59,200 nt of DNA from Patescibacteria group bacterium (GCA_034678605.1 JAXDBQ010000020.1:1-59200); one strand, 5' to 3'; shown: positions 18,697 to 57,562, counted from the stretch's first letter. Made by a program: numbers and translations. The notes: generated by a model not told the origin, from the sequence alone.

Positions 18697-18720
18697 AAAA
18701 ATAGCCGCGCGGCTATTTTT
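18697..18720. terminator. Perfect 24-bp palindrome, bidirectional terminator-like
   Basis: AAAAATAGCCGC|GCGGCTATTTTT. Confidence 0.6.
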
Positions 18721-18739
18721 TTAAAAATATATTTAGATC

Positions 18740-18829
18740 GTTGAATAATCGCCGAATTTTGCCATTTCCACGGATTCGCCAAGTTTAAAATAGTCCGCGA
18801 AATCAATTATTCAACCCTCTCATATTATT
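18740..18829 (-). repeat. Structured repeat, copy 1
   Basis: 18770-18829 matches 20844-20903 at 56/60 nt; closed by a GTTGAATAAT...ATTATTCAAC stem. Confidence 0.85.
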
Positions 18830-20785: not shown

Positions 20786-20809
20786 ATGATTTTTCTCTGT
20801 TTATTTTTA

Positions 20810-20903
20810 GAGTGTCGAATAATTGCCTAATTTTATTGTTTTTACGGATTCGCCAAGTTTAAAATATCCCGCGAAATCAATTATTCAACGCTCTCATGTT
20901 ATT
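20810..20903 (-). repeat. Structured repeat, copy 2, in the rpsB 5' leader
   Basis: Minus strand GAGCGUUGAAUAAUUG...CAAUUAUUCGACACUC forms a 16-position stem with one mismatch and one G-U pair, ending 25 nt before the rpsB ATG. Confidence 0.8.
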
Positions 20904-24161: not shown

Positions 24162-24191
24162 TTATTTGCCCTCTATGGCCACGATGTCGTC
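24162..24191 (-). pseudogene. Orphan duplicate of the transglycosylase gene 3' end (DDIVAIEGK*)
   Basis: 24/30 nt identical to 25150-25179 (DDIAAIEGR*). Confidence 0.7.
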
Positions 24192-24203: not shown

Positions 24204-24809
24204 TTAATTAGCAATATCGGGCAAATCTCTTAACTTTTTGCCTTTGTATTTGAAATAATCCGCCCCCGCATAAGCTCCGCTCGGATTCAATCCACCTCGC
24301 TGTTCATAAAGCTTGTATGTAAGCGGCGCCAATTTCCAAATTTGACCTTCATATTCCACTTCACGCTCACCAATAACTTTTACAGTTATTTTTTCATCAT
24401 CTTTAAAAAGAACCACATCGCCATTTTTCAATCCCTTTTTATAAAAACTAAACAACTCACCTCGCTTTCTAATTTTTGACACCTTATCAAATTCTTTTTC
24501 TTTATTTAGATTTTCCGGATAAATAACCTTACCCTCAAACGACAAAAGTAACTGTTTAACCAACCCATAGTCCAGCGCGAATAACTCGCTATCGCCCACT
24601 TGGTGTTTGTTAAAAATTTCTTTCAAAAGATTTTCCTTGTCTTCGTAATCTTCAATTTCAATCGCGAAGAATTTTCTTAACCCGGCCACATTATAGTAGC
24701 CGTTCGCTTCCAAATTTCGCATTCGTTCCTGGTAATTGTTTGTACCGGTTTTTCCTATTTTTATCAAACCCGAAACAGTAGTTGTCATTACATAAATAAC
24801 TCCTTTCAT
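24204..24809 (-). CDS. GIY-YIG (T5orf172-like) nuclease with C-terminal RAMA/DUF4357-like domain
   Basis: GVIYVM...LIKIGKT...RMRNL and a conserved E (EDKE). C-terminal WKLAPLT...GAYAGADYFKYKGKKL resembles RAMA. Confidence 0.75.
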   Translation of the reverse strand: MKGVIYVMTTTVSGLIKIGKTGTNNYQERMRNLEANGYYNVAGLRKFFAIEIEDYEDKENLLKEIFNKHQVGDSELFALDYGLVKQLLLSFEGKVIYPENLNKEKEFDKVSKIRKRGELFSFYKKGLKNGDVVLFKDDEKITVKVIGEREVEYEGQIWKLAPLTYKLYEQRGGLNPSGAYAGADYFKYKGKKLRDLPDIAN

Positions 24810-25149: not shown

Positions 25150-26613
25150 CTATCTCCCCTCTATCGCCGCGATATCGTCGGCATAGCCCTGGGCGATCTT
25201 GACCACATTGTCGCCGTAGAAGCGGTATTTGGTGTTCACGGTGCCGGCAAAATAGATCATGGCCGCCTTCCATTCGCCGGCGGTGGTTTGCGAGGTGGCG
25301 CCATAATCGGAAACATAAAGCGCCGTGGCCATAAACGCGTCATTGATATTCCAAGGATTGCCCGGCCGGCCCAAAATTGCTTGCAAGCGGCCGGCATAAA
25401 GTTTCCATGTGGACGGAATGAATTGCCCCGGCCCCATAGCGCCGCCATAGCCAAAGCTCATCGGGCAGGACACCCGCGTTTGGTGCGGATCTTTGCCTAG
25501 TGCGGCGGTAATCTCCAAGAACGGCCCCACGTCGCGCGTGGGTTTCATCACCCGGGACGTCGCCGCGCCGGTGCGGATATTGATCCCCGCGCCCGTGGTG
25601 TCGTTGGTCATGTAGCATTGCCCCACGTTTTTGCCCAAATTCGATTCCTGGGTCAAGATCGCCAGCAAAAATGCCGGCCGCACGCCCGTAGCCCCGCCCG
25701 CGGTCTTGGCGATTTGATAGGCCTGTTCAAAATTGGGGGCGTCGGAATCGGCCACGCCGGCCAACGAAAACAGCCGCTCTCTGATCTTTTGGATCACTTG
25801 CGCGGTTAATTTTTTGGCTTGGGTGGTTTGCGCCAATTCGGCGTCTTTCACTTTCAATGTCTTGTTATATTCGGCTTTGGCCTGTTCGTGTTCCTGCTTT
25901 TGCAGTTCTTTCATTTTGGTGGTTTTTTCCAAATCGCCCTTTTCATTTTCCAAGCCGATCTTTTGATCTTCCAATGATTGCTTGAGCCCTCTTATCTGGC
26001 GCAATATCTGGCCGGTCTTTTTGTTTAATTTTTTCAAATAAGCGGCGTTATCAAAAAAATTCGACAATTTCTTTTCTCCGGCCAATGTCTCGATCAGCGG
26101 CGTCTGGTCGGCGCGATCGATCGAGCGCAAAATCGCCGCCAAATATTGCTGTTCCTGGGCGATCTTGCTCGCGGTGGTTTCCACCGAGTCCTCGGTGTCG
26201 GAAATTTGCAATTTCAAATCGCCGATCATGGCATTGCTCTGTTTGATCTGCACCGACAACGAATCGGTTTTTTTCTTCAACGCCGCGATTTGATTTTGCA
26301 AAGATTTTTTTTCGGTCGAGGTCTTGGCGATATCGCTGTCATACGTCTTTAACAACGCCTCGTATTTGTCCAAAAGCGCCTGACAAGTCTCCTTGGTGAC
26401 GCACTCGCCGGTTTCGCCGTTTCCGTTGGCATCTTGCGCCAAAACCAAGCCGTCGCTTCCGGCTGCCAACGCCAAACCCAAAAATAAACTGCCGCATACC
26501 CAAGACATCGCGGCATTCCTGCGGAAAAGCTTGTTTCCCCGCCGCTCATCCCCGCGGCAAGCCGACGGGGTATCGCGACGGTTAAACAAAACAAAAATAA
26601 TTTTGATTTTCAT
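25150..26613 (-). CDS. Secreted coiled-coil (CwlO-like) plus lytic transglycosylase (SLT_2-like) peptidoglycan hydrolase
   Basis: Signal/TM segment, long heptad region, LLAILTQESNLG (catalytic Glu), GGAMGPGQFIPSTW, YAG...Y. Start uncertain (26613 or 26508). Confidence 0.85.
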   Translation of the reverse strand: MKIKIIFVLFNRRDTPSACRGDERRGNKLFRRNAAMSWVCGSLFLGLALAAGSDGLVLAQDANGNGETGECVTKETCQALLDKYEALLKTYDSDIAKTSTEKKSLQNQIAALKKKTDSLSVQIKQSNAMIGDLKLQISDTEDSVETTASKIAQEQQYLAAILRSIDRADQTPLIETLAGEKKLSNFFDNAAYLKKLNKKTGQILRQIRGLKQSLEDQKIGLENEKGDLEKTTKMKELQKQEHEQAKAEYNKTLKVKDAELAQTTQAKKLTAQVIQKIRERLFSLAGVADSDAPNFEQAYQIAKTAGGATGVRPAFLLAILTQESNLGKNVGQCYMTNDTTGAGINIRTGAATSRVMKPTRDVGPFLEITAALGKDPHQTRVSCPMSFGYGGAMGPGQFIPSTWKLYAGRLQAILGRPGNPWNINDAFMATALYVSDYGATSQTTAGEWKAAMIYFAGTVNTKYRFYGDNVVKIAQGYADDIAAIEGR

Positions 26614-41092: not shown

Positions 41093-42088
41093 CTACAATT
41101 CAACGTTTCTAATTTTAATTTTGATGTTTTCTTGGCCCACAAGATAGTTGTCTTCTTTGGCCAAAAGTTTGTCGGAACCGCGGATCGATAGGCAATGCTT
41201 GGCGTTCACCAGCGCCAATTTCATCGAATATTCGATATCGTTGTTCGAAGAAAGCATCCCGCTCATAAAGCCCGAAGCGAACGCGTCGCCCGCGCCGGTA
41301 ACGTCGATTATTTTAAAGGCCTTGGCCTTGCCTTCATAAACCTTGCCCTCGGCAATGATCAGCGCGCCCTCTTTTCCCTTGGTGATCACATTGATGCCCG
41401 GGTGCATATACACGATCTTTTTAATGATCGCTTTTTCATCTTTGTAATCAATGCCAGTTAATGTCGCGGCTTCTTCCAAATTCAAGATCAACACGTCGAT
41501 GCGCGCCAGCAAGCCCTTGATACACGCCCGGCCCATGGCTAATTGGGAATTGCCCAAATTGGCCGCCACCATCACATTGTTCTTACGGGCGAATGCCGTG
41601 ATTTGCTCGGTCAAACGGCACAACCGGCCCGAAAGCGGCGCCAGATAGAACAATTTGGCATTCATTTTGTCCCATTGCACGCACTCATGGCCAAAAAGCT
41701 CGGATGCGCCCCGATAAACCAAGATCACCCGGTCTTCGCCGGCGGCATTGAGCACCACGGAATTATTCGTCGCCCGCTCTTTGGTTTTGCAGATCAATTC
41801 CGTGCCAACGCCCAGCCGCTTCAAATGCTCGGCCACTTCGCGGCCGGGAATATCGTCGCCCACCATGCCGCAATAGGCAGTTTTAAAACCTTGCCGCGCG
41901 AAAGTTGTGGCCGTGTTGACCCCCCCGCCGCCAAACGCAAACCGCATCTGCGGCACATCGATCTTGGAGCCCATGTTGAATTCAAACCCCCGCCCCGAGA
42001 TCATCTTGGCGTCTTTTTTCACAAATTTTGGCGGCATGTCCATAAACGCGTCCCACGCCGCGCTCCCGAAAGTGATTACATCGTACAT
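41093..42088 (-). CDS. PfkB/ribokinase-family carbohydrate kinase
   Basis: FGGGGVNTA, GMVGDDIPG, ITKGKEGA, DVTGAGDAFASG. Confidence 0.92.
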   Translation of the reverse strand: MYDVITFGSAAWDAFMDMPPKFVKKDAKMISGRGFEFNMGSKIDVPQMRFAFGGGGVNTATTFARQGFKTAYCGMVGDDIPGREVAEHLKRLGVGTELICKTKERATNNSVVLNAAGEDRVILVYRGASELFGHECVQWDKMNAKLFYLAPLSGRLCRLTEQITAFARKNNVMVAANLGNSQLAMGRACIKGLLARIDVLILNLEEAATLTGIDYKDEKAIIKKIVYMHPGINVITKGKEGALIIAEGKVYEGKAKAFKIIDVTGAGDAFASGFMSGMLSSNNDIEYSMKLALVNAKHCLSIRGSDKLLAKEDNYLVGQENIKIKIRNVEL

Positions 42089-42124
42089 ATTGACAAATTT
42101 ATTATTTTATGCTAAAATGTTTAT

Positions 42125-42364
42125 ATGACTTGGAAAGAAGCCTTGTATTGGGGAGTGGTGGTAGGTTTACTCATCGCCACTGGGTTATTGCTTTACGATT
42201 TTTACGATTGCAGTAGCGGTGTGGAGAGTCACCCAGGGCAATATCAAGCCCCTTCATCGGGCAACAACGAAAAAATTGATTTCGAACCACTAGCCTCCCC
42301 GGCCGGAGCGAGGAAAGAGTGGGCAACAAAAGGAATAACAGGTCGAGGGATATATTTTCCTTGA
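42125..42364 (+). CDS. Small membrane-anchored hypothetical protein
   Basis: TTGACA (42090), 17 nt, TAAAAT with TGn extension; N-terminal TM helix. Confidence 0.6.
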   Translation: MTWKEALYWGVVVGLLIATGLLLYDFYDCSSGVESHPGQYQAPSSGNNEKIDFEPLASPAGARKEWATKGITGRGIYFP

Positions 42365-42454
42365 CGCTTTTTTTTATTCATTCCTCATAATACTTCGGGG
42401 CTATACCTGATGTAGTTTATTATAAAATTGTTTTCAATCTTTTTTTAGTAATTT

Positions 42455-42583
42455 TTATTTCCGCAGACCGCCGAGCTTGATGATGGTTTTCATAACGCTG
42501 TCGGGGTTAAGCGACATGGTTTCGATGCCTTCGCGCATGATGAATTCGGCAAATTCGGGATAATCGCTGGGCGCTTGGCCGCA
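42455..42583 (-). pseudogene. Orphan duplicate of the last 42 codons plus stop of ppsA
   Basis: 120/129 nt identical to 43460-43588; 8 of 9 differences are synonymous. Confidence 0.95.
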
Positions 42584-42590
42584 AGTTCCC

Positions 42591-42660
42591 TTGACATTAT
42601 TCTATTGCTTGCTATTATTGATTTAGTGACTTCACCCCGAATTAATCTTCGGGGCTTTTG
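42591..42660 (+). promoter_or_regulatory. Antisense promoter plus short hairpin/U-tract facing the NYN gene
   Basis: TTGACA (42591), 16 nt, TATTAT (42613), then CCCCGA-N8-TCGGGG-CTTTTG. Confidence 0.55.
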
Positions 42661-43218
42661 TTATTTGCTTTCCAATTTCAAATATTCGATCTCGCTTCTG
42701 ATGTCTTCAAAAAAGATATGATGCGATTTATGGATTTCCCATGCGACATTCCTTTCGAAACAAGCGAAAATCAACCGCTTTCCGTTGAGAATAACATCTT
42801 TTTTCAATCCAATAAAGTCGCTATCGCTGCTCACAAGCAGCACCGCGTCAATTTTATCCAAACTTCTTATCGCGGCGCAAGTAATTTCCACATCAAAATT
42901 GCATTTATATTTGAATTTAGATTTGGCGCTGTCCAAATAAATCTTTTTAAGCAGCTTTTCGATAATTTCAAAACCCGATTTTTCAATTCTGTCTTTGATC
43001 AATACATTTTTATCATAAGCGGCTTTCTCCAGCGGCATTCCCAAATAATACTTTGCGAATTTTACATTAAAATGCTTCTGGCAAAATATTAAGAACTTGC
43101 CCCAATCGATCCGCCAACCCGCGCTTTTCTGCGAATAAAACAAATTCGCCTCGTCAACAAAAATCCCAACACATTTCCCTTTATATTCGTCTAAAATTTT
43201 GTTAGCTTTGAAATTCAT
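42661..43218 (-). CDS. NYN (LabA/DUF88, PIN-like) domain RNase
   Basis: IFVDEANLFY, KCNFDVEI, LVSSDSDF, FFEDI. Confidence 0.9.
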   Translation of the reverse strand: MNFKANKILDEYKGKCVGIFVDEANLFYSQKSAGWRIDWGKFLIFCQKHFNVKFAKYYLGMPLEKAAYDKNVLIKDRIEKSGFEIIEKLLKKIYLDSAKSKFKYKCNFDVEITCAAIRSLDKIDAVLLVSSDSDFIGLKKDVILNGKRLIFACFERNVAWEIHKSHHIFFEDIRSEIEYLKLESK

Positions 43219-43294
43219 ATTTCAACTTTCAAAATACGTGCCGCAAAATCCTTGACAAAATCGGATTTTGGTATAATTTAAAATCGGTGATTTT

Positions 43295-43441
43295 ATGAGT
43301 TGCGGCGATTGCCCGGATCCGGTAAAATACAAACCATTTACGCGCAAAGATATCAAACCGCTCGCTCTTTATTTTGCAATAATAGTTATAGTGGTACTAC
43401 TTGCGTTATGGTTGGTGACTTTTTTCCAAAGAATTTTATAA
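43295..43441 (+). CDS. 48-aa single-TM peptide (not in the ORF track)
   Basis: MSCGDCPDPVKYKPFTRKDIKPLALYFAIIVIVVLLALWLVTFFQRIL*; extended -10 TGGTATAAT at 43269-43277. Confidence 0.65.
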   Translation: MSCGDCPDPVKYKPFTRKDIKPLALYFAIIVIVVLLALWLVTFFQRIL

Positions 43442-43459
43442 ATCAATAAAATTCTTTTT

Positions 43460-45853
43460 TTATTTCTGCAAGCCGCCCAACTTGATGATGGTTTTCATGA
43501 CGCTGTCGGGGTTCAATGACATGGTTTCGATGCCTTCGCGCATGATGAATTCGGCAAATTCGGGATAATCGCTGGGCGCTTGGCCGCAGATGCCGATGTA
43601 CTTGCCCCGGACCTTGCAGGCCGCGATCGCCTGTTTGACCAAAATTTTCACCGCCTCGTTGTTCTCACTGGCAATATGAGTCAATTGGCCGGCATCGCGA
43701 TCCAAACCAAGCGTTAATTGCGTGAGGTCGTTGGAACCGATCGACATGCCGTCAAAAATATCCAAGAATTGATCGGCCAAGATCACATTTGAGGGAATTT
43801 CGCACATCACCATAATCTTTAACCCATTCTGACCCGATTCGAGGCCGTTTTTTTTCATCACTTCAATCACTTTTTTGCCTTCCTCCACGGTGCGGCAAAA
43901 CGGAATCATCACCCACACATTATCCAGCCCCATCTGTTCTCTCACTTTTTTGATCGCCGCGCATTCCAGCGCGAATGCCGGCGCAAAGCGCGGGTCATAA
44001 TAGCGCGACGCGCCGCGCCAACCGATCATGGGATTTGATTCTTCGGGCTCGTATTCGCTCCCTCCCAGCAACGCGCGGTATTCATTGGTTTTGAAATCCG
44101 AAAACCGCACGATGATGTGCTTGGGATAAAACGCCGCCGCGATCGTGGCAATGCCCTCGGCAAGCTTGTCCACGAAAAATTCTTTTTTATCTTTGTATCC
44201 GAAAGTGATCTGCTCAATTTGCGCTTTCAGTTTTTTGTCTTTCAACTTGCCAAAATTTATCAGCGCCAGCGGATGCACCTTAACTTGATCGGCAAAAATA
44301 AATTCCACCCGCGCCAAACCCACGCCATCATTGGGCAAAAACGAGGCCTTAAACGCCGCTTCGGGCGTGCCCACGTTGAGCATAATCTTTGTCGGCAACT
44401 CCGGAATCATACCTAAATCATATTCCTTTTTTTCATAAGGAATCTTGCCCGCGTAAACCCGGCCTTCCAGCCCTTGGGTGCAATCCGCCGTGGCCATCAC
44501 GCCGTTTTTTAAAACTTTACTGCCATCACGCGTGCCCACAATGCAGGGCGTGCCCAATTCGCGCGACACGATCGCCGCATGGCAGGTTTTGGTGCCCTCA
44601 TCGGTCACGATCGCCGACGCGATGCGCATAATCGGCACCCAATCCGGGTCAGTCATGGTGGTTACTAAAATTTCACCGGCCTTGAACTGATTGATCTGTT
44701 TGACATTGGGAATAATGTGAATTTTCCCCTGGCCAATCTTGTGGCCCACGGCAATGCCGGCAACCAACGGCTTGGCGCTGGTTTTGACTTCGTATTCTTC
44801 GTAAGTATTTTGAGCAACCTTACCGGCATAGATGGTTTCCGGCCGCGCCTGCACAATAAACAATTCGCCGGTTTTGCCATCTTTGGCCCATTCGATATCC
44901 TGCGGCCCATGGTAGTGCTCCTCGATGATCACCCCCCACTTAGCCAATTGTTCGGCTTCTTTATCGGTCAACGAAAACCGTGCCCGGTCTTTGGGCAAAA
45001 CCTTCACTTCCTTCAAACCGACCTTCTTGTCAAAAATGTATTTGATATCCTTGTTGCCCAATGTTTTGGAAATGATCGCAGTTTTACCTGATTTTAAGGA
45101 AGGTTTAAAAACATAGAACTGGTCGGCCACCACATGGCCTTTCACGATCATTTCACCCGCGCCAAAAATCGAATTGATCAAAACCGCGTTGCGAAATCCG
45201 GTTTCCGTGTCCAAAGTGAACATGATGCCCGCCGAGGCCAGATCCGAGCGCACCATTTTCATCACTCCCACCGACAGCGCCACTTTGAGCGTGTCAAAGC
45301 CCTTTTCGACCCGATAAACGATGGCTCGCTCCAAAAACAGCGACGAAATGCATTTTTTCACCGCGTCCAGCAATTCCAAAGGCGTATCGATATTCAAATA
45401 GGTTTCATGCGCCCCGGCAAACGACGCGCCGGCCAAATCCTCGGCCGTGGCCGACGACCGAACCGCCACATTCACATTCTTGGTTTTGTAATAGGCCGAC
45501 AATTCCTTGTAGGCCGCCAAAATTTCTTTTTTGAAATCCGGCGGAAACTCGCCCTTCAAAACCAAATTGCGCGCCAAAGTGCTGGCTTTTTTGAGTTTAG
45601 CTAAATTGGAAGCATCCAAATCTTTGAAGATCGGTTCCAATTTTTTATCAATGCCGTTGTGCCGCAAATAGCGCCAATAGGCCGTGCTGGTGGTAATAAA
45701 CCCGTTGGGGATCGGCACGCCCTTTTCGCCCAATTGCGAAAACATCTCGCCCAGCGATCCGTTTTTTCCCCCGACCAGCTCCACGTCCTTTTTGGTCACT
45801 TCCTTGAACCACGCCACATTCCTCTCGTTTATGTTTTGATTTTCTGTTTCCAT
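43460..45853 (-). CDS. ppsA: Phosphoenolpyruvate synthase (pyruvate, water dikinase)
   Basis: VGGKNGSLGEM, VAVRSSATAEDLAGASFAG, QARPET, TCHAAIVSRELG (phospho-His), GVGLARVEF, SIGSNDLTQL, GICGQAPSD. Start taken at METENQ. Confidence 0.96.
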   Translation of the reverse strand: METENQNINERNVAWFKEVTKKDVELVGGKNGSLGEMFSQLGEKGVPIPNGFITTSTAYWRYLRHNGIDKKLEPIFKDLDASNLAKLKKASTLARNLVLKGEFPPDFKKEILAAYKELSAYYKTKNVNVAVRSSATAEDLAGASFAGAHETYLNIDTPLELLDAVKKCISSLFLERAIVYRVEKGFDTLKVALSVGVMKMVRSDLASAGIMFTLDTETGFRNAVLINSIFGAGEMIVKGHVVADQFYVFKPSLKSGKTAIISKTLGNKDIKYIFDKKVGLKEVKVLPKDRARFSLTDKEAEQLAKWGVIIEEHYHGPQDIEWAKDGKTGELFIVQARPETIYAGKVAQNTYEEYEVKTSAKPLVAGIAVGHKIGQGKIHIIPNVKQINQFKAGEILVTTMTDPDWVPIMRIASAIVTDEGTKTCHAAIVSRELGTPCIVGTRDGSKVLKNGVMATADCTQGLEGRVYAGKIPYEKKEYDLGMIPELPTKIMLNVGTPEAAFKASFLPNDGVGLARVEFIFADQVKVHPLALINFGKLKDKKLKAQIEQITFGYKDKKEFFVDKLAEGIATIAAAFYPKHIIVRFSDFKTNEYRALLGGSEYEPEESNPMIGWRGASRYYDPRFAPAFALECAAIKKVREQMGLDNVWVMIPFCRTVEEGKKVIEVMKKNGLESGQNGLKIMVMCEIPSNVILADQFLDIFDGMSIGSNDLTQLTLGLDRDAGQLTHIASENNEAVKILVKQAIAACKVRGKYIGICGQAPSDYPEFAEFIMREGIETMSLNPDSVMKTIIKLGGLQK

Positions 45854-45977
45854 AATATTGACAATATTATTATTTTTTAACCTAATCAACAATCAAATTT
45901 TTCACCCGGCGGTTACAAAACCAGATAATTGATTTTACCACACCAAAACCCCAAATCAAAATTCCGGCCTTGGTAAA

Positions 45978-48043: not shown

Positions 48044-48085
48044 ATCTTAAATCTTAAATCTTAAATCTTAAATCTTAAATCTTAA
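48044..48085. repeat. Heptamer array (ATCTTAA)x6, reverse complement of the miaB array unit
   Basis: Six perfect copies; contains the acs stop codon. Confidence 0.9.
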
Positions 48086-50001
48086 ATCGGATTCACCGCA
48101 TTCTTGATGCTTTCGACGCTTTCGGGATTGGCCAGGGTGGATAGGTCGCCCAATTCCTCCTTGGTGAACGCTTTGCGCAAAATACGGCGCATTATCTTGC
48201 CCGAACGGGTTTTGGGCAGGTCGCTCACGATAAAAACCTCGTGCGGCGTGGCGATCGGCCCGATGCCGGACCTAATCGCGGCGATTACTTTCTCCTTCAA
48301 TCCGGCGGTATCGGCCGGGTTTTTGGCCACCACGAACGCCACCGGCACTTCGCCCTTGATCTCGTCCACCACGCCCACCACCGCGCATTCGGCCACGGCC
48401 GGTTCATGACAAGCCGCGCTTTCCAACTCACCCGTGGTCAACCGATGGCCGGCCACTTTGATCATGTCATCGGCCCGACCCACCACGCGCAACAAGCCAT
48501 GCTTGTCGCGCACGCCCAAATCACCGGAAAAATAATATTTGTTTTGGTATTGGCTCCAATAAGTATCAACAAATTTTTGCTCATTGCCCCAAACCCCGTG
48601 CAGCAAACTAGGGCAAAACGGCGGCACCAGCACCACGCTGCCTTCCTGGCCGGCTTTGCAAACTTTGCCGGCCTCGTCAACAACTCTTATCCGGATTCCC
48701 GGCAACGGCAAGCCCGTATGCGCCGGTTTGAACGGCCCGATGCCCGGCAAAGACGTCGCAATTATCCCCCCGGTTTCGGTCTGCCACCAGGTATCAAGGA
48801 TGGGGCACCGCTTTTTGCCCACTTCGGCAAAATACCAATTCCAGGCCTTTTCGCTGATCGGCTCGCCCACTGAGCCCAAAACCTCCAGCGTCTTCATCGA
48901 ATAGGGCTTCAAGATCTCCGTGCCGTTCTTCATGAACATCCGGATGGCCGTGGGCGCGGTATAGAACACGGTTACCCCGTATTTGTCGATCACATTGGCC
49001 CAGCGGTCCGGATTGGGATAATCCGGCAAGCCCTCAAACATAATAAACGTCGCGCCATTCAAAAGCGGCCCATAACAAGAATAAGTGTGCCCGGTGACCC
49101 AGCCGATATCAGCCGTGGACCAGAAGATATCATCGTCGGTGAGATCGAATATCCATTTATCGCTGGCATAGGCCGATACCATATAACCGCCGCATGTATG
49201 CAAGGCACCCTTGGGCTTGCCCGTGGATCCGCTGGTGTACAGAATGAACATCGGGTCCTCGGCATCCATGGTTACGGCCGCGCATTCGTCGGATTCGCCG
49301 CGAATTATCTGATCATACCAAATATCGCGCGCTTCGGTCCAGGCAACCTCGTTTCCGGCATGCTTAATGACCACGGTTTTTTGCACCCCGGTATCAATCA
49401 AACCCTCATCGGCCTGTTTTTTCAAATCCACGACTTTGCCCCGCCGGAAATACCCGTCGCAAGTAATCAACACCTTGGCGCCGGCATCCTGCAAACGCAC
49501 TTGCAGCGCCTGGGCGGAAAATGCCGAAAACACCACCGAATGCACCGCGCCGATGCGCGCGCAAGCAAGCATCGAAACTACCACTTCGGGAATCATCGGC
49601 AAGTACACTCCCACCCGATCGCCTTTCTTGACCCCTAATTTTTTGAGCGCGTTGGCGAATTTGTTCACGCGGCGATAAAGATCATAATAAGTGATCATTT
49701 GCGCCGGCTGAGCCGAATCATCGGCCTCCCAAATGATGGCCACCTTGTTTTTGCGTGTGCTTAAATGCCGATCCAAGCAATTCTCGGTGATGTTTAATTT
49801 TCCGCCCGCAAACCATTTGATATGCGGCGGATTATCAACATAGGCCTTGTTCCATTTTTTACGCCAAAGTAATTCCTTGGCCGCCGCCTCCCAAAACTTC
49901 ACCGGATTTTTCTCGGCAACCGTGTAAACGCTTTTCGCCTTCAACCACGCGCGCTTTTTTGCCACCGCGTCCGGCCAATAAAGTTCCCCTTTTTTTATCA
50001 T
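48082..50001 (-). CDS. acs: Acetate--CoA ligase (AMP-forming)
   Basis: GGKLNITENCLDRH, FILYTSGSTGKPKG, WSTADIGWVTGHTY, GSVGEPI, DTWWQTETG, LPKTRSGKIMRR. Confidence 0.96.
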   Translation of the reverse strand: MIKKGELYWPDAVAKKRAWLKAKSVYTVAEKNPVKFWEAAAKELLWRKKWNKAYVDNPPHIKWFAGGKLNITENCLDRHLSTRKNKVAIIWEADDSAQPAQMITYYDLYRRVNKFANALKKLGVKKGDRVGVYLPMIPEVVVSMLACARIGAVHSVVFSAFSAQALQVRLQDAGAKVLITCDGYFRRGKVVDLKKQADEGLIDTGVQKTVVIKHAGNEVAWTEARDIWYDQIIRGESDECAAVTMDAEDPMFILYTSGSTGKPKGALHTCGGYMVSAYASDKWIFDLTDDDIFWSTADIGWVTGHTYSCYGPLLNGATFIMFEGLPDYPNPDRWANVIDKYGVTVFYTAPTAIRMFMKNGTEILKPYSMKTLEVLGSVGEPISEKAWNWYFAEVGKKRCPILDTWWQTETGGIIATSLPGIGPFKPAHTGLPLPGIRIRVVDEAGKVCKAGQEGSVVLVPPFCPSLLHGVWGNEQKFVDTYWSQYQNKYYFSGDLGVRDKHGLLRVVGRADDMIKVAGHRLTTGELESAACHEPAVAECAVVGVVDEIKGEVPVAFVVAKNPADTAGLKEKVIAAIRSGIGPIATPHEVFIVSDLPKTRSGKIMRRILRKAFTKEELGDLSTLANPESVESIKNAVNPI

Positions 50002-50222
50002 AGTTTTTTATTTTTTTAATAATGATTTCCCTCAAAAATTATTCAATTATTCCAAATAAGGCACACATCCCCATTGACCCGGCCGCATTGTGCGCCCCTC
50101 GGAGCAAAAAATCTCGCCTCTTTGATCAATAAAAATAATATAAACCGCGAATATAACAAAAACAACCATTAAATAAATCAATATATTTTTCGTGCTTATT
50201 TTTTTCCATTTTTAAATTATTT

Positions 50223-51227
50223 TTAATTCCCGGATTCCAAATAATTTCGCACCGCGCGGTCAAAATCGGAAACAAATTTTTTGTCCGCGGCGGCTTTGAA
50301 TTTTGAAAACTCGGTATCCGCTTTTATCTGCGCCTCTTCCATGCTCACATTGCCCGCGTTTTTCAAAACCCCTTTGCCCAAAATCTTTAAATACTCATCC
50401 AATTTAACGATCCAATCAGCCATTTTCATCGGATTTTGGCTCTGCGCCTGGATTTCCGCGAAAGAAAGATACGCGTCAACAATGCGATTAAGATTTTGAA
50501 GTTCGTTTTCCTTTAAATAATTTTTAGCGATATAAATGTCGCGTTTGATGAAATTGTCTCCGGGAAAATTCGTCAATCCCATATTTTGCTTTCCGCCATC
50601 CGCTCTAAACGCGATAATTTCGGACGCGGTTTTGCCGGTTACCGCGTAATGCATTTTATTCTGCACGGTTTTAAAAAAAAGATCGGTGATTTCGGCATCA
50701 TTGCGATAGTCAATGCTGGTGGCGTAAATATCGGTTACTTTTTGATATAACATCCGCTCGCTGGAACGAATATCGCGGATTCTTTGCAACAACTCCTCAA
50801 AATACCTTGACCTATGCCCGCCTTGCTTCAACCGCGCGTCGTCGAGCGCAAACCCTTTTATCATGTATTCTTTCAACCGCTCGATCGCCCATTGGCGGAA
50901 TATCAACCCACGCTCGGAATTAACCCGATAGCCCACCGCGATAATCGCATCCAGACTGTAAAATTCGATTTCGCGCCCAACATCTCTGCTACCTTCTCTC
51001 TGAACTATTCGGAATTTCCGAATAGTTGAATTTTGCTCTAATTCTCCTGTTTTAAATATATTTGACAAATGTTCATTAATGGTCGGCACATTAACATCAA
51101 AAAGCTGGGCCATCAATTTTTGCGACAGCCAAATATTTTCATCCTCAAGCCGCACTTCGACGCGCCTGGCGCCATCCGGCGTTTTATATATAATTATTTG
51201 ATTTTTCCCCTCTCTTTCTTCTGCCAT
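50223..51227 (-). CDS. RhuM-family (virulence RhuM) protein
   Basis: IIIYKT, NIWLSQKLMAQLF, INEHLSNIF, YSLDAIIAVGYRVNS, FRQWA, GFALDDARLK, RIRDIRSSER. Confidence 0.92.
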   Translation of the reverse strand: MAEEREGKNQIIIYKTPDGARRVEVRLEDENIWLSQKLMAQLFDVNVPTINEHLSNIFKTGELEQNSTIRKFRIVQREGSRDVGREIEFYSLDAIIAVGYRVNSERGLIFRQWAIERLKEYMIKGFALDDARLKQGGHRSRYFEELLQRIRDIRSSERMLYQKVTDIYATSIDYRNDAEITDLFFKTVQNKMHYAVTGKTASEIIAFRADGGKQNMGLTNFPGDNFIKRDIYIAKNYLKENELQNLNRIVDAYLSFAEIQAQSQNPMKMADWIVKLDEYLKILGKGVLKNAGNVSMEEAQIKADTEFSKFKAAADKKFVSDFDRAVRNYLESGN

Positions 51228-51265
51228 GTATTAATTACAAAATAATTTCAAATAAATATTTTTAA

Positions 51266-51328
51266 TTCAACCACGCTCGTTTTTTTTGCCGCCGCGTCCG
51301 GCCAATAAAGTTCCCCTTTTTTTATCAT
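51266..51328 (-). pseudogene. Orphan duplicate of the first ~20 codons of acs (frameshifted)
   Basis: Matches 49940-50001 with 3 substitutions and one extra A; lies 14 nt after the gapA stop. Confidence 0.93.
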
Positions 51329-51342
51329 AAATTTAATTTAAA

Positions 51343-52365
51343 TTAAATTTTATTGCCGACAAATTCGGCGAATTCGGCCAGACGGGTGGAATAACCCCAT
51401 TCGTTGTCATACCAGGCACCCACTTTCACCAAATTGCCGTTGGCCATGGTCAAGCCCGAGTCCACAACCGACGAATAGCCGCTGCCGATGTAGTCGCTGG
51501 AAACCAGCGGCGCGGTTTCGAACGCCATGATGCCTTTGAGCGGCTTTTTTTGGCTGGCCTTTTCCAAGGCCGCGTTCACTTCCTCGACGGTTGTTTCCCG
51601 CTCCAGCTCGCACACCAAATCCACGATCGAGCCGGTGGGCACGGGCACGCGCAAGGCGATGCCGTCCAATTTGCCTTTTAACTCGGGAATGACCTTGCCG
51701 ATAGTCTTGGCCGCGCCGGTGCTTGTCGGGATGATGTTCAATCCGGCCGCCCGGGAACGGCGCAAATCCTTGTGCGGCAAATCAAGGATTTTTTGATCGT
51801 TGGTATAGGCGTGCACCGTGATCATAAAACCTTTGACAATACCGAAATTTTCATTCAAAACCTTGGCCACCGGCGCCAAGCAATTGGTGGTGCAGGAGCC
51901 CATGTCCACAATATTATCCTTGGCCGAGTCATAATTGTCGGCGTTGATGCCCGGCAAATAGGACGGAATTCTATCGGCATCTTTTGCCGGTGCCGAGATC
52001 ACCACTTTTTTGCCGCCCGCGATCAAATGCTTGGCCGCGTCGTCATATTTGGTGAACCTGCCGGTACATTCCAAAACCACATCCACGCCATATTTTTTCC
52101 ACGGCAAATCATGCGGTTCGGCAAGCGCGGCCACCGCGACTCGCGTCATGGATTTCTTGCCGCGAATTACAATTTCTTTTTCCGCCGCCTCGATTTCCTT
52201 GTCCCAACGGCCATAAATCGAATCATATTTCAATAAATGTGCCAGCACTTTGGGTTCGGTAAGATCGTTTACCGCCACCATATCCAATTCCGGATGCTTG
52301 TCAATGATTATTTTCAAAACATGCCGGCCGATCCGGCCAAGGCCATTGATCGCGATTTTAACCAT
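51343..52365 (-). CDS. gapA: Glyceraldehyde-3-phosphate dehydrogenase, type I
   Basis: IAINGLGRIGR, VLECTG, SCTTNCLAP, TVHAYT, NIIPTSTGAAK, RVPVPTGS, WYDNEWGY. Confidence 0.98.
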   Translation of the reverse strand: MVKIAINGLGRIGRHVLKIIIDKHPELDMVAVNDLTEPKVLAHLLKYDSIYGRWDKEIEAAEKEIVIRGKKSMTRVAVAALAEPHDLPWKKYGVDVVLECTGRFTKYDDAAKHLIAGGKKVVISAPAKDADRIPSYLPGINADNYDSAKDNIVDMGSCTTNCLAPVAKVLNENFGIVKGFMITVHAYTNDQKILDLPHKDLRRSRAAGLNIIPTSTGAAKTIGKVIPELKGKLDGIALRVPVPTGSIVDLVCELERETTVEEVNAALEKASQKKPLKGIMAFETAPLVSSDYIGSGYSSVVDSGLTMANGNLVKVGAWYDNEWGYSTRLAEFAEFVGNKI

Positions 52366-56959: not shown

Positions 56960-57034
56960 AATTTTTCTTACTTACTTGACAAAATAGATTGATAAGATAA
57001 ACTTATAATACAATCACGAGCGGAAAAAACAACC

Positions 57035-57562
57035 CTATGAGGTTTCGTCCTTATGGGGCTTTTTCTTTTTTGGAATATACGCCAACTTCTTTTTCAAATC
57101 ATTCATAAATCTCAAAAAAATCCGGCAAATTTTAAATTTTAAAAGTGCGGAAAATTGGAATTTATTTGGAATCATTATTGCCAAAAGTTTTTCATTTTCT
57201 ATTAAATATTTAATCAAACAATAGAAATCGCCATCGCCGGTAACAATAAGCGCTTTGTCATAATTTCGATATTCAATCATTGACCATAATACCAATTCGG
57301 CGTCGCAATTTCCTTTGGTTGACCCATCATTATGTTTTAATGTCGGCTTAAAGATACAGACAAAACCGGCATTCTGTAAAAAAGCATACAAATCATTGTT
57401 CCCCTCAACATATCCAATAAATAAAAATGCTTTCGATACTCCATATTTTTCTTTTAAATAAACTCTAAATTTCGCGAAATCCAAACGCCATCCAAGCGAT
57501 TGCACGCTCAAATTTACATTTTGGCTGTCAATAAACGCATAATTGTTTTCCTTGGATCTCAT
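57035..57562 (-). CDS. NYN (LabA/DUF88) domain RNase
   Basis: AFIDSQNVN, KGNCDAELV, IVTGDGDF. ATGA overlap with the upstream flavoprotein gene. Confidence 0.92.
   Translation of the reverse strand: MRSKENNYAFIDSQNVNLSVQSLGWRLDFAKFRVYLKEKYGVSKAFLFIGYVEGNNDLYAFLQNAGFVCIFKPTLKHNDGSTKGNCDAELVLWSMIEYRNYDKALIVTGDGDFYCLIKYLIENEKLLAIMIPNKFQFSALLKFKICRIFLRFMNDLKKKLAYIPKKKKPHKDETS

Follow-up and report, generated by a model that had tools for sequence, protein, structure and literature searches.

The 59,200-nucleotide stretch of a Patescibacteria group genome analyzed here (GCA_034678605.1, JAXDBQ010000020.1:1-59200; hereafter the window) carries, between the essential metabolic gene ppsA and pfkB, a gene for an NYN-domain protein that is bounded by two direct copies of the 3' end of ppsA. 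We consider it somewhat more probable than all other readings together that an accessory defense- or toxin-antitoxin-like NYN cassette, devoid of a recombinase, entered the ppsA–pfkB spacer on imported DNA and was then subject to gene conversion and allele exchange. The locus looks like a scar of recombination with the DNA of relatives, reached by a known route of entry, and not like a new kind of mobile element. Its features, from ppsA to pfkB, are the following.

43460–45892, minus strand: ppsA, intact, encoding a PEP synthase-like protein of 810 aa (Pfam PPDK_N, 1.8e-110; PEP-utilizers; PEP-utilizers_C)
43457–43588, minus strand: live repeat copy, comprising the final 129 nt of ppsA and 3 nt more, its tail ending LGGLQK-stop; its last 15 nt are those of the L006 allele
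43518–43588, minus strand: 71-nt block identical to 42513–42583, a candidate for the most recent tract of conversion or crossover; forms a Logan unitig of its own (71 nt)
43428–43457: perfect 12-bp hairpin between the 48-aa open reading frame (ORF) and ppsA
43295–43441, plus strand: 48-aa ORF (ORF call), predicted to have one membrane helix and running convergently to ppsA
43231–43258, minus strand: promoter-like site for the NYN gene, TTGTCA-16-TATTTT (ATTTTGTCAA), a motif kept upstream of NYN in L050 and L051
42661–43218, minus strand: NYN-domain protein (LabA/DUF88-like, PIN-fold), 185 aa (PF01936, 1e-13; PADLOC NYN, 1e-6)
42590–42662, plus strand: convergent promoter–hairpin element at the NYN 3' end, conserved across the aligned loci
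42584–42589, no strand: 6-nt junction separating the -35 box/pfkB-start remnant from the orphan tail, whose first base follows it
42455–42583, minus strand: orphan ppsA tail, ending LGGLRK-stop, non-coding in context (no in-frame start; in-frame stop upstream)
42090–42375, plus strand: self-contained mini-gene with promoter TTGACA-17-TAAAAT, a 79-aa ORF (42125–42364) and a terminator (42342–42365)
41093–42088, minus strand: pfkB-family sugar kinase (PF00294, 8e-40)

The two repeat copies, 42455–42583 and 43460–43588 (the last 129 nt of ppsA), are identical at 120 of 129 positions, the same figure as in a preliminary description of this DNA; a repeat finder reports 132 nt at 93% identity (42452–42583 and 43457–43588), the 3 additional bases being part of the T run that follows the stop codon. 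Read on the minus strand, both encode the same peptide except at the penultimate residue, (R/Q)K-stop. As had also been reported, the gene-internal 71 nt (42513–42583 and 43518–43588) are free of mismatches and all nine differences lie within the 58 nt nearest the stop codon, a distribution with a chance probability, given nine differences, of P = 0.001 for an identical terminal run of at least 71 nt and 0.005 for such a run anywhere. Constraint does not explain the identical block, since the ppsA tails of other members of the genus differ from that of the window at 4–13 positions in those 71 nt. The tail is nonetheless the best-conserved DNA of the gene, with 4–13 differences per 71 nt versus 28–37 in the preceding 150 nt.

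The nine differences (A>G, T>C, G>T, C>T, T>C, G>C, C>T, T>C and A>G; seven transitions and two transversions) fall in seven codons, of which six are synonymous (TCA/TCG, TTG/CTT, GTC/GTT, TTG/CTC, GGC/GGT and TTG/CTG) and one, CAG/CGG, exchanges Q for R; the earlier count of eight synonymous changes in nine is correct when made by nucleotide. Seven transitions and two transversions placed at random would yield one amino-acid change or fewer with P = 0.0002–0.0003. Moreover, the last 15 nt of the orphan (GGTCTGCGGAAATAA, LRK-stop) are those of the functional ppsA allele of L005 and L009, and the last 15 nt of the live tail (GGCTTGCAGAAATAA, LQK-stop) are those of the functional allele of L006. 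The distal variants of both copies are thus alleles present in functional ppsA genes of the genus, and the tail alleles of the window are common to non-sister species. The synonymous excess and the match of both ends to functional alleles bear out the earlier contention that the differences are not the decay of a dead duplicate. Because both distal variants are functional alleles of other genus members, one of the two segments was acquired, by recombination, from a functional allele that had diverged, again as had been proposed; differences that are synonymous only would seem to need such an exchange at a later time. The live tail joins the body of ppsA seamlessly, with no breakpoint visible upstream, and sliding-window identity along ppsA disclosed no recombinant tract upstream of the tail. 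In a conspecific MAG, by contrast, a recombination tract can be seen directly: the approximately 110 mismatches are confined to 44650–45821, a 9.5%-diverged tract that ends inside ppsA.

Two circumstances were recognized at the outset that would have made the structure illusory: that the orphan belongs to a second intact ppsA, or that the NYN gene is not linked to both copies. Neither is borne out. The genome contains one full ppsA, the 42455–42583 fragment and no further copy, and assembled contigs cross both junctions. The structure is present in two independent MAG assemblies, identical base for base (the second being GCA_964551425.1, L033/L040), and in contigs from at least eight studies. 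Five contigs assembled at k 119–127 (L034=L046, L035=L048, L044, L045 and L047) span the live tail, with the ppsA body on one side and the cassette on the other, and the junction between the small-RNA promoter and the orphan is crossed by the two MAG contigs, by ENA contigs L034, L035, L038 and L039, and by Logan unitigs L036 and L037. A chimera of two co-occurring strains (one with ppsA–NYN, the other with ppsA–79-aa ORF–pfkB) joined via the shared 71-nt block might be imagined, as k=31 unitigs break at the block and short contigs of several assemblies stop in or near it. The spanning contigs and the agreement between MAGs argue against a chimera, as do the analogous structure that another species shows in two long, independently assembled contigs and the depth of the block, which forms its own k=31 unitig at nearly the sum of its two neighbors. 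We judge a chimera to be exceedingly improbable and effectively refuted.

The gene pfkB is the conserved right-hand neighbor of ppsA in the genus, and the spacer between them is a cassette hot spot. Three relatives (L004, L008 and L011) have a single ppsA tail followed by pfkB at 10–60 nt, that is, an empty site, and other spacers in the genus contain a small ORF, HicAB, or a RelBE-like pair accompanied by either a short 77-aa ORF or a membrane ORF; the HicAB and RelBE-like cassettes are unaccompanied by a tail duplication. NYN is absent from 12 same-genus GTDB representatives, and its comparison therefore rests on metagenome contigs, in which homologs with 84% and 73% identity occupy the ppsA–pfkB spacer as well. 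In a second species, represented by L050 (and by L079, an independent assembly), we found the same NYN module together with an orphan tail that abuts pfkB. This orphan begins at the same ppsA nucleotide as that of the window and with the same junction spacing (GTCAAG-GGAACT-TGCGGCC in the window, GTCAAG-ATTGAT-TCGGCC in L050). A ppsA tree places the window and L033 as sister to L004 and L050 (support 89/90; L004 with L050, 100/100), and L004, the sister of L050, has an empty site. Identity between the window and L050 at third codon positions is 67% for NYN, 62% for ppsA and 51% for pfkB; since L050 shares both module and breakpoint, and its NYN gene is as diverged as ppsA, the duplication is not a fresh insertion scar.

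A different arrangement is found in what we call type I loci, in which the NYN module sits between ppsA and pfkB without any repeat. In donor-type loci (L051, L086, L010, L013 and L074–77) the hairpin/promoter element is flush with the pfkB ATG. The -35 box of the window element, CTTGACAT (42590–42597), is the reverse complement of ATGTCAAG, the start of pfkB in type I loci. The junction in the window joins a type I pfkB-start/-35 remnant to ppsA at position -129, with at most 1–2 nt of shared sequence.

The 873 nt between the repeats contain only two genes, NYN and the 48-aa ORF. The preliminary description of a repeat-bounded NYN cassette is accurate in that both tails bound the gene, but the unit also includes the 48-aa ORF and a convergent promoter and hairpin, and in the other clade (L051 and L086) NYN occupies the spacer without duplication. 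Residues D22, N25, D109, E111, D132, S133 and D134 of the NYN protein are invariant in 21 homologs, and its putative acidic catalytic set is intact. The convergent element consists of a promoter (TTGACA-16-TATTAT, 42591–42618) and a hairpin with a U-run (42635–42662), from which an RNA of about 40 nt, antisense to the NYN 3' end, is predicted. An alignment of ten loci showed both promoter boxes to be conserved and the spacer to be variable (an eleventh match, L075, is a bare hairpin outside this set), and the element accompanies NYN homologs in unrelated contexts too. The hairpin matched no Rfam family, and neither NYN nor the other cassette genes tested matched NCBIfam. Among 5.8 billion proteins there were no homologs of the 48-aa or the 79-aa ORF, and so the donor or pre-insertion arrangement was not found. 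L050 retains a degenerate remnant of the 5' end of the 48-aa ORF with its promoter and is missing the 79-aa mini-gene. The orphan itself holds an open frame of 48 aa with a TAG, and a consensus scan for a promoter within it, a possible reason for its retention upstream of pfkB, detected none.

Comparison of both tails with relatives, as had been suggested earlier, was informative as to age. Each orphan groups with the live tail of its own species, the tails of the window and L050 displaying 11 species-specific and 0 copy-specific site patterns; polarization of the nine differences with 12 relatives was ambiguous and gave no clear native copy, and either distal segment may be the foreign one. 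The duplication looks old and homogenized by gene conversion, which we infer solely from site patterns in 129 nt. Given the 11:0 pattern, the 71-nt identity is better read as the latest tract of conversion or crossover. The earlier equation of the identical block with a crossover zone accordingly survives in part: a breakpoint lies at the edge of the block, but the block is less likely to mark the original integration crossover. The orphan of L050 exhibits decay, with 10 differences, six of them amino-acid changing.

These observations bear on a model close to that of the preliminary description, a mobile, recombinase-free "Campbell cassette" that RecA would excise as a 1,005-bp circle and that would re-enter by a single crossover in the ppsA tail, recently and separately in each species. 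We regard this as possible but rather unlikely. The direct repeats with their perfect 71-nt block, the conservation of the ppsA tail, the resemblance of both tails to functional alleles, and an element-side junction that is the same in two species when a sister species is empty are all in its favor. However, the element-derived half of the orphans is no closer between species than are the live tails (the proximal 71 nt differ at 14 positions between the orphans and at 10 between the live tails), the L050 orphan agrees from end to end with the live tail of L050, as a hybrid att product would not, and NYN has diverged between species as deeply as core genes. Unitig depth is divided: that of the cassette is 0.72–0.87 of its flanks in one study, as excision would have it, but equals the flanks in a second (overall range, 0.72–1.1), corresponding to a cassette-less fraction of at most 13–28% in the one and none in the other. 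No junction of a circle or an empty site was visible in the k=31 Logan unitigs, in which a repeat of 71 nt hides the distinction between the integrated, the circular and the empty form.

A related and more elaborate proposal, that NYN and the ~40-nt hairpin RNA constitute a toxin-antitoxin-like pair with addictive properties and, with the ppsA tails, a self-sufficient mobile cassette that loops out by RecA, enters via the ppsA tail and blocks its own loss by addiction, is in our opinion unlikely; if true, it would offer CPR defense genes a general means of travelling attached to the ends of core genes.

A site-specific process has also to be considered. Islands that target tRNA genes or guaA carry a replacement gene end, and a CIME- or satellite-like element lacking its own integrase might likewise depend on an att site within the 3' end of ppsA and on a tyrosine or serine recombinase acting in trans. 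A conserved gene that is targeted at its 3' end and restored in the process, direct repeats bounded by the stop codon, the shared breakpoint and the empty sites of relatives would all fit. Against this, there is no integrase or transposase in the cassette or between ppsA and pfkB, nor any recombinase in the 1-kb unit and its neighbors; the one PF00589 tyrosine recombinase of the 99%-complete genome is encoded on contig C7 and is plausibly Xer; HicAB and RelBE-like cassettes occupy the same spot, and type I loci hold the NYN module, without repeats; and the orphans track the tails of their own species. We hold such an element to be decidedly improbable. A transposon or insertion sequence was rejected, there being no transposase and no convincing inverted repeats (only chance-level inverted matches of 10–11 nt) and the 129-nt duplication not being short. 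A diversity-generating retroelement at the locus was rejected as well, as the differences are not confined to adenines and the locus has no reverse transcriptase gene.

The copies might, alternatively, have been identical at first and have arisen in situ as a long target duplication, for instance by widely staggered breaks and fill-in, possibly provoked by the nuclease of the cassette. The target–insert–target geometry, with repeats of 30–420 bp and no mobility gene, is that reported for restriction-modification genes (PMC2853133), several cassettes in the window with duplicated ends encode nuclease- or defense-like proteins, and the simple layout of L050 would fit. But later changes in a dead copy would be mostly non-synonymous, as they are in L050, whereas in the window one of nine is (P ~3e-4) and the changes are clustered; the right end bears a pfkB-start remnant of another clade, pointing to import with flanking DNA; and NYN domains are predicted to cleave RNA and not DNA. 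We consider this origin improbable.

The favored reading, import from a relative followed by conversion and allele exchange, can be set out in three steps. In the first, DNA would have been taken up from an organism related to the type I clade, with NYN between ppsA and pfkB and an antisense promoter overlapping the pfkB start codon. Its left end would have recombined via the highly conserved ppsA tail, and its right end, with the first 8–14 nt of donor pfkB, would have joined illegitimately 129 nt before the recipient ppsA stop codon, leaving ppsA complete and the resident tail displaced downstream as an orphan. In the second, to judge from the site patterns, the junction either is older than the two species or spread between them, and the live tail would repeatedly have overwritten the orphan by gene conversion within each, the 71-nt block being the latest tract. 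In the third, suggested by the synonymous-only differences, exchange with a diverged functional ppsA allele would have replaced the distal 58 nt of one copy, with a crossover at the block edge and adjacent small-ORF DNA probably swapped along. Recombination between the repeats would remove the cassette and yield an empty site like that of the sister species. The order and number of these steps we infer from the two orphan-bearing species only, and the lack of clear microhomology at the illegitimate junction counts against this best explanation. So does the expectation that direct repeats sharing 71 identical nt would lose the cassette easily, for which reason it would take selection or addiction to keep it, and the breakpoint common to two species may instead reflect a site-specific process.

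A self-BLAST of the whole genome for the same pattern identified a single true analog, also in the window: at 49940–51363 the 5' end of acs is duplicated around a RhuM/PDC-S05 gene. The best-looking 3'-end duplications elsewhere (C1 5462/5874 and C32 150220/150610) proved to be VR/TR pairs of diversity-generating retroelements with Avd and reverse transcriptase genes, and these true retroelements look unlike the ppsA-tail repeat; repeats on C25 and C22 were paralog N-termini, and those on C3 and C20 (18715/20789) were intergenic. We also note that several cassettes in the window with duplicated gene ends encode nuclease- or defense-like proteins (NYN, GIY-YIG/PDC-S57 and RhuM/PDC-S05).

Integrase islands target gene 3' ends and supply a replacement end (tRNA-, ssrA- and guaA-type att sites). 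The NYN locus resembles them in that the repeats derive from a gene 3' end, the gene is intact and relatives are empty; it differs in having no recombinase in or beside the unit, a repeat of uncommon length for an insert of 1 kb, and repeat-free occurrences of its module at this very locus. The minimal mobile elements of Neisseria are cassette sites between conserved genes that are exchanged by transformation. They too have a fixed intergenic site with varied or no small cassettes, homologous flanks as the vehicle and no mobility genes; to our knowledge duplication of a flanking gene end has not been described for them, unlike the ppsA tail here, and taxon and cargo differ. Integrase-mediated islands are discussed in PMC2853133, and the Neisseria elements are mentioned in PMC3082526.

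Closer in form is insertion with long target duplication, described by Nobusato et al. 2000 as recounted by Furuta, Abe and Kobayashi 2010 (PMC2853133), which is reported mostly in naturally competent species; the published cases are restriction-modification systems, and some of the repeats overlap the 3' end of a neighboring gene (PMC2853133). The NYN locus shares with these a short accessory unit (<20 kb, without integrase, transposase or other mobile-element genes), a direct duplication of >30 bp (here 129–132 bp, 93% identical over 132 nt), a target that is single-copy in insert-free relatives (L004, L008 and L011), and a host with competence genes, ComEC (PF03772) and DprA (PF02481), known from gene presence alone. 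Its cargo, however, is a PF01936 NYN nuclease-like gene with an antisense promoter–hairpin and no methyltransferase, the duplication is common to two species and evolves in concert, and the copies differ by an allelic synonymous segment and not by random decay. For rhs, CDI and T6SS effector-immunity loci, displacement of C-termini into orphan 3' regions has been ascribed to homology-facilitated illegitimate recombination (Kirchberger et al. 2017, PMC5361080, which cites Jackson et al. 2009). Here, likewise, incoming DNA may have been anchored in the conserved part of a gene, bringing a 3' end and cargo and pushing the resident end downstream across a non-homologous second junction, and arrays once formed would pass between strains by ordinary homologous recombination; the presence of ComEC and DprA genes suggests that uptake and RecA-type recombination are available. 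In contrast to those loci, the gene encodes a housekeeping enzyme with a tail that is not a variable toxin tip; old and new tails specify one and the same peptide, the cargo under selection is external to the gene, and a single displacement can be seen instead of a string of orphans.

Finally, ultra-small CPR genomes have few classical mobile elements and strong variation in accessory and defense genes, and the locus is a clean multi-genome example of how such variation can arise through host recombination alone: a conserved gene tail would serve as the landing pad, the displaced tail would be kept alike by conversion, and alleles would be swapped between species. Orphan gene ends of this kind confuse annotation and short-k assemblies, and they mark cassette hot spots that can be mined for defense genes such as the NYN and antisense-RNA module.

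The source genome (1.0 Mb, 99% complete, of the CPR/Patescibacteria type) contributes the window as one entire 59.2-kb contig, in which the region between ppsA and pfkB is laid out as follows:

41093-42088, minus strand: pfkB
42125-42364, plus strand: self-contained 79-aa mini-gene
42455-42583, minus strand: orphan ppsA tail, duplicating the final 129 nt of that gene
42590-42662: 73-nt promoter-plus-hairpin element, convergent with the NYN gene
42661-43218, minus strand: NYN-domain gene
43295-43441, plus strand: 48-aa ORF (ORF prediction), convergent with ppsA
43460-45892, minus strand: ppsA, 810 aa, with all three PEP-synthase domains

The orphan and the tail of intact ppsA (the live tail, 43460-43588) are identical at 120 of 129 nt; a repeat finder reports the pair as 132 nt at 93%. 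The preliminary description had held that the differences cluster near the stop codon and are nearly all synonymous, and both points were borne out. The gene-internal 71 nt (the block) show no difference; the nine differences are all within the stop-proximal 58 nt (the distal segment), where eight are synonymous and one changes the peptide (CAG/CGG, Q/R). Random placement of the differences would leave 71 or more identical nt at a terminus with P = 0.001, and mutations striking at random (7 transitions and 2 transversions, as observed) would cause one amino-acid change or fewer with P = 0.0002-0.0003. We reject constraint as the cause of the identical block, since ppsA of other species of the genus differs from the window by 4-13 nt there.

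An assembly artefact could be rejected on several grounds. The genome contains one full ppsA and the orphan fragment, with no other copy, and a second, conspecific MAG (GCA_964551425.1) has the same structure, matching base for base from pfkB to mid-ppsA. Five contigs assembled at k = 119-127 read through from the ppsA body into the live tail and the cassette, and the junction between promoter and orphan is spanned in the contigs of both MAGs, in four more ENA contigs and in two Logan unitigs. In k=31 unitigs the block forms a separate node, whose depth is about the sum of its two neighbors (for example, 95.5 versus 51.8 + 44.1). At least eight studies, on digesters, sludge or wastewater, recovered the cassette-bearing organism. 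The ratio of cassette depth to flank depth was 0.72-0.87 in one study (P1) and about 1.0 in another (P2), as measured in k=31 unitigs, which are blind across the 71-nt repeat; such ratios would leave room for excision in a minority of cells at most.

In the genus, ppsA and pfkB lie side by side as conserved neighbors, and the content of the spacer between them is variable. The site is empty (10-60 nt) in L004, L008 and L011 and is 144 nt long in L006; it holds a small membrane ORF in L005 and L009, HicA/HicB in L010, a short 77-aa ORF with a RelBE-like pair in L007 and L013, and a membrane ORF with a RelBE-like pair in L012. The ppsA-pfkB spacer is a cassette hot spot. Adjoining spacers in the window also carry accessory genes (AbiE pairs and a RhuM/Fic-like gene).

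The closest NYN homologs (84% and 73% identity) are likewise encoded between ppsA and pfkB. At two such loci (L051 and L086, here called type I) the hairpin element lies 3' of the NYN gene, its -35 box CTTGACAT and the pfkB start ATGTCAAG being reverse complements, and neither locus has an orphan ppsA tail. A second orphan-bearing species is represented by L050 and, on an independent 67-kb contig at 99.99% identity, by L079. In L050 an orphan tail comes after the NYN gene and the element; it abuts the pfkB start codon and has its first nucleotide at the same ppsA position as the window's orphan. The element/orphan junctions read ...GTCAAG GGAACT/TGCGGCC in the window and ...GTCAAG ATTGAT/TCGGCC in L050, where about 14 nt resembling a type I pfkB start are retained. 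The common breakpoint and the remnant of a pfkB start argue that the junction is homologous in the two species, and would reveal a type I locus as the origin of the module, a few donor pfkB bases having come with it. A shifted-frame ORF of 35 codons runs across the orphan tail (42478-42597, minus strand), starting at the ATG of the pfkB-start remnant ATGTCAAG; as this ATG is changed to AAG in L050, the ORF is probably meaningless.

How old is the arrangement? The NYN proteins of the window and L050 are 83% identical, and third-position identity is 67% for NYN, against 62% for ppsA and 51% for pfkB, so that the module appears to be about as old as the species split. In a tree of the ppsA body, the window and the conspecific MAG (L033) are sister to L004 and L050 (support 89/90; 100/100 for L004 with L050). 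L004, the sister of L050, has an empty site; either it lost the cassette, which recombination between the repeats would remove precisely, or the lineages of the window and L050 gained it separately. The orphan differs from the live tail of its own species at 9 (window) or 10 (L050) positions and from the other species' copies at 19-26. Among site patterns in the tails, 11 are species-specific (live and orphan alike within a species) and none is copy-specific, which excludes a single old duplication left alone. The two tails would instead have been homogenized by gene conversion, or else formed anew, with identical breakpoints, in each lineage.

A dead orphan can mutate at all sites and a live tail only at silent ones, so differences arising after homogenization should be mostly orphan-borne and non-synonymous. 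L050 conforms: six of its ten differences alter amino acids (C>F, P>L, P>A, E>K, S>P and V>A), and its orphan behaves like DNA that has been dead since the last homogenization. The window does not follow the L050 pattern. Both distal segments code for intact peptides and match alleles of functional genes: the last 15 nt of the orphan are those of L005 and L009 (LRK*), the last 15 nt of the live tail are those of L006 (LQK*), and the live distal segment has 5 differences to L006 versus 9 to its own orphan. The earlier views that the differences are not random decay, and that two functional alleles were joined by recombination, thus stand. Judging from these matches, one distal segment must derive from homologous recombination with a diverged functional ppsA, the crossover lying at the block edge, and the adjacent small-ORF DNA, absent in L050, was probably imported with it. 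Recombinant tracts of the needed kind are present in this population. The conspecific MAG (L033/L040) is 100% identical to the window from pfkB to about 44600, and some 110 mismatches are confined to 44650-45821 (the 5' 1.15 kb of ppsA) between flanks of 100% identity, a recombination import from a diverged lineage with its end inside ppsA. Upstream of ppsA, before the 175-aa gene, this MAG also has an additional ORF of 182 aa, and the whole difference from the window is bounded by 44650-45926.

Across the genus, ppsA DNA has 4-20 differences in its last 129 nt (4-13 in the 71 nt of the block) versus 28-37 in the preceding 150 nt (43589-43738). The tail is the best-conserved DNA of the gene, and as such a natural homologous anchor between species. 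Tail alleles are common to non-sister species, which, together with this conservation, hints that cassette exchange carries them from species to species.

The cassette unit contains no integrase, transposase or terminal inverted repeats; the only tyrosine recombinase of the genome is on another contig, and ComEC and DprA are encoded. Insertion with long target duplication has been described for restriction-modification genes (PMC2853133), and the locus resembles it in its target-cargo-target order, long and variable duplication, lack of mobility genes and competent hosts. The geometry equally matches that proposed for rhs/T6SS loci (PMC5361080), in which 3' ends would be displaced by homology-facilitated illegitimate recombination. 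Given the junction common to L050 and the age of the module, we read the event not as a freshly integrated mobile cassette but as an old scar, shared between species, of an insertion with long target duplication; gene conversion would have kept its copies alike, and allelic exchange would later have re-sorted them.

Similar layouts occur elsewhere in the window. The first approximately 63 nt of acs (48082-50001, minus strand), with some upstream sequence, are duplicated upstream of the RhuM/Fic-like gene (50223-51227; PADLOC PDC-S05 at 1e-138), between it and gapA. The repeat pair lies at 49940-50036 and 51266-51363, the orphan copy having slipped by 1 nt in an A-run, and here too a duplicated gene end encloses a cassette, the second in the window. 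Beyond a GIY-YIG gene (24204-24809; PADLOC PDC-S57 at 4.5e-53), the 30-nt tail of a 508-aa gene (24162-24191) recurs at 25150-25179 (24/30), a weaker instance.

We also noted repeats of other kinds. A 115-nt non-coding repeat (81%; 18715-18829 and 20789-20903) has one copy upstream of rpsB and the other past the end of the rpsB-tsf-ORF cluster. In two diversity-generating retroelements on other contigs of the genome (C1, 4416-7502; C32, 148673-152233), the 3' end of the target gene (VR) recurs some 400 nt downstream in the form of an AAC-rich template repeat (TR), and Avd-like and reverse-transcriptase ORFs come next; such VR/TR pairs look like 3'-end duplications in a repeat scan. On contig C19 (5900-16000) at least 12 copies of a repeat of about 95 nt (78-98% identity) lie 0.45-2 kb apart, with a second family of about 105-120 nt; the copies may represent an array of cassettes or else conserved gene termini.

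Finally, we consider the cargo. The NYN protein retains the acidic set of PIN/NYN nucleases, seven residues (D22, N25, D109, E111, D132, S133 and D134) that are invariant in 21 homologs. Overlapping the 3' end of the gene is a convergent, sigma-70-type promoter-like site (TG-extended TTGACA-16-TATTAT); about 7 nt beyond it come a 7-bp GC hairpin and a U-run. In the ten loci with the element, which include NYN homologs of only 60% identity in unrelated neighborhoods, the two promoter boxes and the hairpin are conserved and the spacer is variable. A second NYN gene in the window (57035-57562) has a similar element at 56976-57066, the consensus at the two genes being TTGACA-16/17-TAnnnT plus a hairpin-terminator at the NYN 3' end. 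Rfam has no family for the element. In some relatives it persists beside pfkB, although NYN has been swapped for HicAB or RelBE-like pairs. The element is predicted to encode an antisense RNA of about 40 nt, and its conservation suggests that NYN is a regulated, possibly toxin-antitoxin-like nuclease. Such a role would be in keeping with the HicAB and RelBE-like pairs that otherwise take this site, and could be a reason for the survival of the cassette between direct repeats. Of the leads to come from this locus, the conserved NYN-antisense module looks the most promising.
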